Shown here piece after piece: positions 1,809 to 3,829 of a DNA stretch of 5,486 nucleotides. The DNA comes from Enterobacteria phage FL68 Tallahassee/FL/2012. The first letter of the stretch is position 1; every line of letters begins with the position of its first letter. The notes below the pieces were generated by a model. The model did no database searches. It saw only the letters and a program-made list of their open reading frames with translations, and was not told the DNA's origin. The stretch is taken from sequence record KF044309.1, one strand, 5' to 3'. The position numbers and the translations under genes were made by a program.

Positions 1809-1974
1809 CGCTCTCGACGAGGAAAAATACCTAAATATGCTAGGTGCTCTCCTCAAGGACTGGTTCCGTTACGAAGAACATTTCGTACATGGTAAACAAT
1901 CAATGCTTGACTTATTAAATGAACGTGGACTATTATCCACATCAACAACCAACCCAAAAGGAAATACAAAATGA
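1720..1974 (+). CDS. C: Protein C (ssDNA synthesis and packaging switch protein)
   Basis: 84-aa product [21 protein letters not shown]..., collinear with phiX174 gpC ([45 protein letters not shown]). ATG 1720 overlaps the A stop TGA (ATGA). The track's 1702 start is a GTG upstream extension with no support. Confidence 0.9.
1907..1936 (+). promoter_or_regulatory. Candidate sigma70 promoter pD inside gene C: -35 TTGACT at 1907-1912, 18-nt spacer, -10 TATTAT at 1931-1936
   Basis: Near-consensus hexamers with good spacing, about 35 nt upstream of the D start. The homologous phiX174 region (TTGACA ... TACTAT) is the known pD promoter. The AAGGA Shine-Dalgarno for D at 1958-1962 lies downstream of the predicted start. 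Confidence 0.55.
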
Positions 1975-2426
1975 ACTCTAACGAATCTGCTGTTGCCTTC
2001 GCTACTGCTCTCGCATCTATCAAGCTTATTCAGGCTTCATCTGTGCTGGACCTGACCGAAGACGACTTCGACTTCTTAACCCGTGACCGTGTATGGATTG
2101 CCACTGACCGCTCCCGTGCCCGCCGCGCTATTGAGGCCTGCGTATATGGTACATTGGACTTTGTCGGATACCCTCGCTTTCCTGCTCCTGTTGAGTTTAT
2201 TGCTGCCGTCATTGCTTATTATGTTCATCCCGTTAACATCCAGACAGCATGTCTTATTATGGAAGGCGCCGAGTTCACCGAAAATATTATCAATGGTGTT
2301 GACCAGCCAGTTAAGGCCGCTGAACTATTCGCTTTTACCTTGCGTGTACGCGCCGGAAACACTGACCATGTTACACATGCAGAAACTAACGTACGTGAAC
2401 AATTACGTGCTCAAGGAGTAATGTAA
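1971..2426 (+). CDS. D: External scaffolding protein D
   Basis: 151-aa product, very close to phiX174 gpD as recalled (TALASIKLIQAS, VLDLTEDDFDFLT, VWIATDRSRARR, EACVYGTLDFVGYPRFPAPVEFIAAVIAYYVHPVNIQTACLIMEGAEFTENIING, PVKAAELFAFTLRVRAGNTD). ATG overlaps the C stop (ATGA). Confidence 0.95.
   Translation: MNSNESAVAFATALASIKLIQASSVLDLTEDDFDFLTRDRVWIATDRSRARRAIEACVYGTLDFVGYPRFPAPVEFIAAVIAYYVHPVNIQTACLIMEGAEFTENIINGVDQPVKAAELFAFTLRVRAGNTDHVTHAETNVREQLRAQGVM
2146..2421 (+). CDS. E: Lysis protein E (MraY inhibitor), embedded in the +1 frame of gene D
   Basis: ATG 2146 with GAGG at 2133-2136. 91-aa product MVHWTLSDTLAFLLLLSLLLPSLLIMFIPLTS..., matching phiX174 E in length and in the N-terminal transmembrane segment (WTLWDTLAFLLLLSLLLPSLLIMFIP). 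The track's 112-aa version starts at an upstream GTG. Confidence 0.9.
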   Translation: MVHWTLSDTLAFLLLLSLLLPSLLIMFIPLTSRQHVLLWKAPSSPKILSMVLTSQLRPLNYSLLPCVYAPETLTMLHMQKLTYVNNYVLKE

Positions 2427-2506
2427 TGGCTAAAGGCTCTCGTCGGCGTTCGCCGTCCCGCTCTAAAGGTGCTCGCCTCTGGTATGTTGGCGGCACACAA
2501 TTCTAA
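2426..2506 (+). CDS. J: DNA-binding (packaging) protein J, small basic protein
   Basis: Hand translation gives the 26-aa product MAKGSRRRSPSRSKGARLWYVGGTQF. The KGARLWYVGG core is conserved in phiX174 and G4 J proteins, and the short length matches my recollection of the G4-like J. Strong AAGGAG Shine-Dalgarno at 2413-2418; the ATG overlaps the D stop (TAATG). Too short for the ORF track. Confidence 0.85.
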   Translation: MAKGSRRRSPSRSKGARLWYVGGTQF

Positions 2507-2545: not shown

Positions 2546-3829
2546 ATGTCTAACGTTCAAACTTCCGCTGACCGTATTCCTAACGACCTTTCTCACCTCG
2601 TCTTCGAGGCTGGCAAAATCGGTCGTTTAAAAACTATCTCTTGGACTCCAGTTGTCGCTGGCGACTCATTTGAAACTGAAATGGTAGGCGCTATTCGCCT
2701 TTCCCCACTTCGTCGTGGCCTTGCCGTCGACTCTCGCGTGGATATTTTCTCCTTCTACATCCCGCATCGTCATATCTATGGTCAACAATGGATTGACTTT
2801 ATTAAAGCTGGTGTTAATGCTACTCCGCTGGCTCCTGTTACCTGCTCCTCTGGCTGGGACTCTGCTGCCTATCTTGGCACTATTCCATCATCTACACTCA
2901 AGGTTCCTAAATTCTTACATCAAGGATACCTGAATATTTACAATAACTACTTCAAACCGCCGTGGGATACTGACCTCACTTACGCTAACCCATCTAACAT
3001 GCCTGAACAGGATTATAAATGGGGTGTTCGTGTCGCTAACTTAAAATCTATCTGGACCGCTCCTCTGCCTCCTAACTCTAAAATATCAGAGACTATGACC
3101 ACTGGCGCTACGTCTATTGATATTATGGGCCTGCAAGCTGCTTATGCTAAATTGCATACCCAACAAGAACGTGACTACTTCATGACTCGCTACCGCGATA
3201 TTATGAAAGACTTCGGCGGACACACCTCCTACGATGGTGATAACCGCCCTCTGCTGCTTATGCGCTCTGAATTCTGGGCCTCTGGCTATGACGTCGACGG
3301 TACTGACCAATCTTCATTAGGTCAGTTCTCTGGTCGCGTCCAACAGACATTCAATCACAAAGTACCTCGCTTCTATGTACCTGAACACGGCGTCATTATG
3401 ACTCTCGCTGTTACTCGCTTCCCTCCTACTCATGAAATGGAGATGCACTATCTTGTCGGCAAAGAATCTTTAACTTATACCGACATCGCTTGCGACCCTG
3501 CTCTTATGGCTAACTTGCCTCCGCGCGAAGTATCCCTTAAGGAATTCTTCCACTCTTCGCCGGACTCCGCTAAGTTCAAAATCGCCGAAGGTCAATGGTA
3601 CCGCACGCAGCCTGACCGTGTCGCATACCCTTATAACGCTCTTGATGGCTTCCCGTTCTATTCTGAACTGCCATCTACTGACTTAAAACAACGTGTCTTA
3701 GTTAATACTGATAACTACGATGAAATCTTCCAGTCTATGCAACTCGCACACTGGAATATGCAAACCAAATTTAACACTACTGTCTATAGACACATGCCTA
3801 CGACTCGTGATTCAATCATGACGTCATAA
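2546..3829 (+). CDS. F: Major capsid protein F
   Basis: 427-aa product, collinear with the phiX174 and G4 F proteins as recalled (MSN(I/V)QT, GDSFE, LRLSPLRRGLA, GYLNIYNNYFK, IDIMGLQAAYA, QERDYFM, SGYDVDGTDQ, SLGQFSGRVQQT, KFKIAEGQWYR, LPTTRDSIMTS C-terminus); same length as phiX174 F. AAGGA Shine-Dalgarno at 2535-2539. Confidence 0.97.
   Translation: MSNVQTSADRIPNDLSHLVFEAGKIGRLKTISWTPVVAGDSFETEMVGAIRLSPLRRGLAVDSRVDIFSFYIPHRHIYGQQWIDFIKAGVNATPLAPVTCSSGWDSAAYLGTIPSSTLKVPKFLHQGYLNIYNNYFKPPWDTDLTYANPSNMPEQDYKWGVRVANLKSIWTAPLPPNSKISETMTTGATSIDIMGLQAAYAKLHTQQERDYFMTRYRDIMKDFGGHTSYDGDNRPLLLMRSEFWASGYDVDGTDQSSLGQFSGRVQQTFNHKVPRFYVPEHGVIMTLAVTRFPPTHEMEMHYLVGKESLTYTDIACDPALMANLPPREVSLKEFFHSSPDSAKFKIAEGQWYRTQPDRVAYPYNALDGFPFYSELPSTDLKQRVLVNTDNYDEIFQSMQLAHWNMQTKFNTTVYRHMPTTRDSIMTS

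Follow-up and report, generated by a model that had tools for sequence, protein, structure and literature searches.

Positions 2146-2421 of the phage FL68 genome hold an ordinary phiX174/G4-type microvirus gene E, which is already known and annotated and is nothing new. Taken as a whole, the data are best explained if this stretch encodes the microvirus lysis protein E, whose targeting of MraY and binding of SlyD would follow by homology, and we hold this reading with high confidence. The nesting of gene E in gene D was one of the earliest cases of overlapping genes to be reported, and E serves as a model ‘protein antibiotic’ through its block of MraY. In FL68, its presence simply confirms a standard G4/ID2-type microvirus. 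The FL68 protein adds one more natural variant of E, with an identical membrane helix and a divergent N-terminus and tail, and its practical value is small. It could be set beside the E proteins of phiX174, ID21 and ID52 to ask which residues govern the need for SlyD and the efficiency of lysis, as in the making of bacterial ghosts, for instance.

Gene E lies within gene D

The window, by which we mean the whole 5,486-nt stretch of DNA analysed, was identified by megablast against GenBank phage records as a complete circular microvirus genome (Microviridae, Bullavirinae). The first-pass annotation of this DNA had placed a lysis gene E, read in the +1 frame, wholly within the scaffolding gene D, with its stop codon among the last codons of D, and the coordinates and frame remainders agree with this placement (Table 1). 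The E frame opens with an ATG at 2146-2148 and comprises 276 nt, that is, 91 codons plus the stop; relative to D it reads in the +1 frame, as 1971 mod 3 is 0 and 2146 mod 3 is 1. The E stop straddles D codons 150 and 151 (GTA ATG), and the D stop and the ATG of gene J share one A (TAATG). The predicted product, MVHWTLSDTLAFLLLLSLLLPSLLIMFIPLTSRQHVLLWKAPSSPKILSMVLTSQLRPLNYSLLPCVYAPETLTMLHMQKLTYVNNYVLKE, begins MVHWTLSDTLAFLLLLSLLLPSLLIMFIPLTSRQHV and ends YVLKE.

Table 1. Features of the gene E region of FL68 and homologous E frames in other phages. Positions are those of the window unless preceded by an L number.
Feature	Position	Strand	Basis
Sigma-70-like site TTGACT-18-TATTAT inside gene C (candidate pD promoter)	1907-1936	+	Consensus scan, 10/12 matches
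Gene D, external scaffolding protein, 151 aa	1971-2426	+	PF02925 (gpD), 1.1e-84; 84% identical to phiX174 D
GAGG, Shine-Dalgarno-like, 9 nt upstream of the E ATG, within D codons for I-E-A	2133-2136	+	Sequence
Gene E, lysis protein, 91 aa	2146-2421	+	ORF read; annotation in relatives; PDB, Pfam and PHROG matches
CAT codon, His3, same residue as the phiX174 slyD-bypass allele R3H	2152-2154	+	Sequence
Predicted E transmembrane segment, residues 9-29, TLAFLLLLSLLLPSLLIMFIP	2170-2232	+	Hydropathy; 21/21 identity to phiX174
CCG codon, Pro21, helix-kinking proline	2206-2208	+	Sequence; kept in 14/16 aligned E proteins
Pfam Microvir_lysis C-terminal domain, E residues 35-74	2248-2367	+	PF04517 positions 1-40/40
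E stop TAA (2419-2421), D stop TAA (2424-2426), J start ATG (2426-2428)	2419-2428	+	Sequence; J versus PF04726, 3.6e-14
Longer E ORFs of G4, ID12 and ID8	L012:2154-2465, L013:2154-2471, L005:573-863		
Leu21 E homologues of five K-12/Salmonella microviruses	L004:576-851, L006:576-863, L018:476-763, L019:476-763, L020:476-763		Homologous to FL68 2146-2421

Two candidate expression signals precede E. The GAGG upstream of its start codon would act as a weak ribosome-binding site for E, and the pattern to which it belongs, GAGGC(C/T/A)TG(C/T)GT(N)T-ATG, was found in 16/16 genomes compared. The sigma-70-like site further upstream sits where pD would be looked for and is, by analogy, a candidate for this promoter, which would transcribe both D and E; the phiX174 pD is located in gene C (bioRxiv 10.64898/2026.07.25.740675).

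The naming of this frame as lysis gene E, also made in the first-pass annotation, is borne out by annotation and by profile and structure matches. E is annotated as ‘cell lysis protein’ at exactly these coordinates in the records of FL76, ID2 and ID204, as is D at its own. The FL68 protein matched both solved E chains of the MraY–E–SlyD complex, that of phiX174 (8G02, chain 8g02_B; 6.1e-28, residues 2-91) and that of ID21 gpE (8G01, chain 8g01_B; 3.1e-21). Its residues 35-74 matched Pfam PF04517, ‘Microvirus lysis protein (E), C terminus’, scoring 50.4 bits where the gathering cutoff is 25, and its full length (1-91/91) matched PHROG 1472, of the category lysis, at 1e-42. The label ‘endolysin’ that phrog_1472 carries is a misnomer, E being a non-enzymatic MraY inhibitor.

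Set beside known E proteins, the FL68 protein is an unremarkable member of the phiX174-type family. FL76 (AGS81880.1) and ID2 (NC_007817, YP_512374.1) have the same gene at the same coordinates, encoding the same 91-aa protein; ID2 E is 100% identical to FL68 E, and FL76 differs from FL68 by one base across the E region, at 2340. The phiX174 protein shares the length of 91 aa, the +1 position in D, a stop 5 nt before the D stop and Pro21, at 67% overall identity, but it has Arg3 and Trp7 where FL68 has His3 and Ser7. The E proteins of G4, ID12 and ID8 (Gequatrovirus G4) resemble FL68 E in their start position in D, N-terminal helix and His3, with 59-66% identity; their ORFs extend beyond the end of D, however, and those of ID12 and ID8 overlap the J start, whereas FL68 E ends inside D. 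Containment of the whole of E in D thus holds for FL68 and phiX174, whereas the nearest sister species departs from it. The alpha3, ID62, NC35, WA13 and ID21-type proteins agree with FL68 E in start and membrane helix, at 57-59% identity across the length in common, but with 75-76 aa they stop about 50 nt before the D stop, unlike FL68 E. Judged by those features of Bullavirinae E that can be assessed from sequence, FL68 E has the profile expected of the family; the RWxxW motif, which is a non-consensus criterion, is missing.

The membrane segment is identical to that of phiX174 E

The first-pass annotation described a strongly hydrophobic N-terminal segment nearly identical to the phiX174 E transmembrane domain, and proposed a transmembrane prediction on the 91-aa product. 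The segment is present and the likeness is closer than claimed, as residues 9-29 are identical to phiX174 E at 21/21 positions and are uncharged. Kyte–Doolittle hydropathy gave one N-terminal helix, with the best 19-residue window at residues 10-28 (mean 2.79, the maximum), and insertion in the membrane is predicted.

Ahead of this helix, FL68 E reads His3-Trp4-Thr5-Leu6-Ser7 (Ser7 codon at 2164-2166), and the N-terminal Arg-Trp-x-x-Trp pattern is therefore absent from it. This motif has been proposed by one group as the element that recognizes Phe-288 of MraY (PMC11812184). Across 16 aligned E proteins, Trp4 was the sole residue of the motif to be invariant. The alignment comprised FL68 and 15 other distinct genomes, which sample the phiX174-like, G4-like and alpha3-like groups and include two unclassified phages. 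Because RWxxW is missing in G4-like phages, we argue that it does not define the E family.

Within the helix, Pro21 was kept in most of the aligned proteins (Table 1), and in ID52 E the P21A mutation abolishes lysis (PMC11126076). Five K-12/Salmonella microviruses (PJNS002, MG1, SECphi17, Lilleto and lillemer) have records without an E annotation, and all of them retain an open E homologue of 91-95 aa with Leu at the position of the otherwise invariant Pro21, in the stretch LSLFLLLSLTTFI. The change from Pro21 to the Leu stretch in these phages is made by five third-position changes that are silent in D. A leucine at this position is odd because P21 has been reported as essential in both phiX174 and ID52 E. 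Either the Leu21 proteins act in another way, or the need for P21 is not universal.

The C-terminal part of E is weakly basic and variable

By homology, residues 35-74 of FL68 E would form the cytoplasmic, SlyD-binding part of the protein. The C-terminus had been called basic in the first-pass annotation, and this stands in sign but less so in degree. Residues 30-91 (2233-2418) contain 6 K/R and 2 D/E, for a net charge of +4 and a pI of 9.6, which makes the region weakly basic when set against the corresponding part of phiX174 E (13 K/R, net +11). Past residue 35, phiX174 E has the same residue at 32 of 56 positions (57%), and the two proteins may differ in the details of how they contact MraY and depend on the chaperone.

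The E proteins vary in length at this end, from 75-76 aa in the alpha3-like phages through 91 in FL68 and phiX174 and 96 in G4 to 103-105 in ID12 and ID8, and the C-terminus of E is evolutionarily plastic. Given the short alpha3-like proteins, the last ~15 residues of FL68 E are dispensable for the family.

Proposed mechanism of lysis and its possible dependence on SlyD

In the reading that we favour, E would be translated at a low level from the D mRNA, starting at the internal ATG behind the weak GAGG site. The helix near its N-terminus, which spans roughly residues 9-29 and is kinked at Pro21, would insert in the inner membrane and lodge in a hydrophobic groove beside helix 9 of the host translocase MraY, blocking lipid I synthesis. 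The chaperone SlyD would hold and stabilize the cytoplasmic C-terminal part, giving the MraY–E–SlyD ‘YES’ complex. Septal wall synthesis would then fail in growing cells, which would burst and release phage. The FL68 sequence itself establishes the ORF, its frame relative to D, its homology and conservation, and the constraint on the membrane segment; the MraY target, the membrane topology, SlyD binding and lysis are all predicted from relatives whose E has been studied by experiment. According to one report, MraY is the target of E, SlyD is required, and E occupies the groove beside helix 9, with resistance mapping to F288L (PMC11812184); according to another, the YES complex consists of MraY, E and SlyD, with MraY kept in an inhibited state (PMC10914600).

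We also considered that FL68 E is the same gene with the same MraY target but is SlyD-independent, a natural ‘Epos-like’ or ID52-like E; this is possible, although we regard it as rather doubtful. In phiX174, R3H (G575A) belongs to the classical pair of ‘Epos’ mutations, which permit plating on slyD hosts via raised E synthesis (PMC4825663), and a CAT codon 3 (G575A + C576T) arose in experimental adaptation to slyD-defective hosts (PMC3324380). FL68 has CAT at codon 3, which gives it both the R3H residue and the adapted codon. ID52 E, also G4-like, is reported still to lyse a slyD knockout, and mraY overexpression protects cells against it (PMC11126076); stabilization by SlyD, which holds for phiX174 E, is therefore not universal. 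The scarcity of K/R residues in the C-terminal domain relative to phiX174 points the same way. However, R3H in phiX174 is thought to raise E synthesis, an effect that may depend on mRNA context, and His3 is common among G4-like phages. The C-terminal region of FL68 E also still matches PF04517 end to end. We folded the 70 nt of RNA around the E ATG in search of a start-occluding structure that His3 or R3H could relieve, and the fold was no better than that of shuffled sequences in either FL68 (z = +0.67) or phiX174 (z = -0.25). Lacking significant structure, the E start gives no mechanistic support for reduced SlyD dependence. His3 and the much less basic tail nevertheless make a lower SlyD dependence of the FL68 allele conceivable. 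If SlyD independence were true, a small number of residues at the N- and C-termini would decide chaperone dependence in this family, which would then differ from one wild phage to another.

It is far less probable, to the point of being very unlikely, that E acts mainly by oligomerizing into a transmembrane tunnel that fuses the inner and outer membranes, as in the ‘bacterial ghost’ model, and not mainly on MraY. E-specific transmembrane tunnels have been seen by electron microscopy according to the bacterial-ghost literature (PMC8622331, PMC11126076). Against this, genetic resistance maps to mraY (F288L), and two reports describe an E-derived peptide that inhibits MraY and cryo-EM structures with E bound to MraY (PMC11812184, PMC10914600; 8G01, 8G02). 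The holes are taken to mark where the wall gives way, and not to be a pore formed by protein.

Conservation and selection indicate that E is a functional gene

The first-pass annotation had named an interruption of the E frame in close relatives as one observation that would speak against it, and this objection fails. Reading Bullavirinae genomes directly, we found the homologous +1 ORF open in 21/21, FL68 included, a sample that takes in the phiX174-, G4- and alpha3-like phages and a clade infecting K-12; three of the genomes from this clade lie beyond the 16 aligned. In a tblastn search of FL68 E against all phage records, 533 of the 536 matching records gave a single uninterrupted alignment covering at least 80% of E. 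The E ATG sits at the homologous D codons V-Y-G (gtATATGGt), 22 codons into the open stretch, in 16/16 aligned genomes. In ID1, an upstream stop trims the open leader and leaves E unaffected.

The overlap also leaves a mark on D. Given the +1 offset, third codon positions of D are second positions of E, so every D-synonymous change there alters E. Computed position by position over the 16 genomes, mean pairwise diversity at D third positions was 0.48 in codons 1-58, which lie outside the overlap, and it was 0.157 where E residues 1-30 are encoded and 0.45 along E residues 31-91. Among codons whose amino acid is invariant in D, 14/28 varied synonymously under the E helix, versus 24/27 and 28/31 elsewhere. 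This roughly threefold lower synonymous diversity argues for extra purifying selection exactly on the E membrane helix. For the C-terminal part of E, the rate of change is close to what the silent sites of D permit.

These data bear on whether the +1 ORF might be a by-product of D amino acids and codon choice, with no functional protein expressed. We re-encoded the D protein 20,000 times using the FL68 genome’s own codon usage, and 4.4% of these synonymous recodings gave a +1 ATG ORF of at least 91 codons. The length of the ORF is thus modestly beyond chance, and it is homology and conservation, not length, that make the case for a gene. In addition, the LAFLL...LSL core of the helix follows automatically from the conserved D motif RFPAP(V/A)EF, and it is seen as well in a Vibrio microvirus in which the +1 frame runs for just 18 codons before a stop. 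An unexpressed by-product is nonetheless effectively refuted, and we give it almost no chance, because the frame is open from the same start in all of these divergent genomes and nearly all database matches, D synonymous diversity is suppressed under the membrane helix, and E has homologues among E proteins that were purified and whose structures were determined. Homology and conservation argue overwhelmingly for E as a gene.

The Vibrio microvirus, phage vB_VpP_WS0699, has a recognizable D (L009:717-1169) that keeps RFPAPAEF. We found no E homologue in the +1 frame of its D region, which reads MELLTWSEWLAFLLRLSL and then stops, an 18-codon ‘proto-E’. The core of the E helix is therefore a by-product of a conserved D motif, which is consistent with an origin of E by overprinting. 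Phage vB_VpP_WS0699 itself must lyse its host by another route.

Genome context

By megablast, the closest record to FL68 is FL76 Tallahassee/FL/2012 (KF044310, 5486 nt), with 99.9% identity over the full length, followed by ID2 (97.7%) and ID204 (95.3%); G4-like phages are at about 85%. FL76, ID2 and ID204 are all assigned to the species Gequatrovirus talmos. Compared base by base, FL68 and FL76 differ by just two substitutions, 1654 C/T and 2340 T/C, and the record has an N at 3346. The change at 2340 is silent in both frames (TTG/CTG, Leu, in D; CCT/CCC, Pro, in E), and that at 1654 is located in the A/K overlap. Gene order is standard, A/A*, B, K, C, D(E), J, F, G, H, and D, J, C and K each match their own Pfam family. 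For gene A, the mechanically called ORF starts at an ATG at 32 and all related records start it at 62, so that the two calls differ over positions 32-61.

Minus-strand ORFs over the E region (2030-2212, 2076-2228 and 2225-2362; 45-60 aa) were dismissed, as they are unannotated in every related record. To our knowledge, microviruses express only the strand given here. A repeat scan over 1900-2560 returned nothing beyond one chance 14-nt pair, and a simple-rule terminator scan over 1500-2700 found no terminator. That simple scan overlooked a G+C-rich hairpin in the J–F intergenic region at 2513-2528, GGGGCUUCGGCCCC, followed by UCUAUUU, which has a fold energy of -13 kcal/mol (z = -1.7) and is probably the equivalent of the T_J terminator. 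Inside gene A, at 500-529, the genome carries an exact copy of the 30-nt viral-strand replication origin of phiX174, CAACTTGATATTAATAACACTATAGACCAC.
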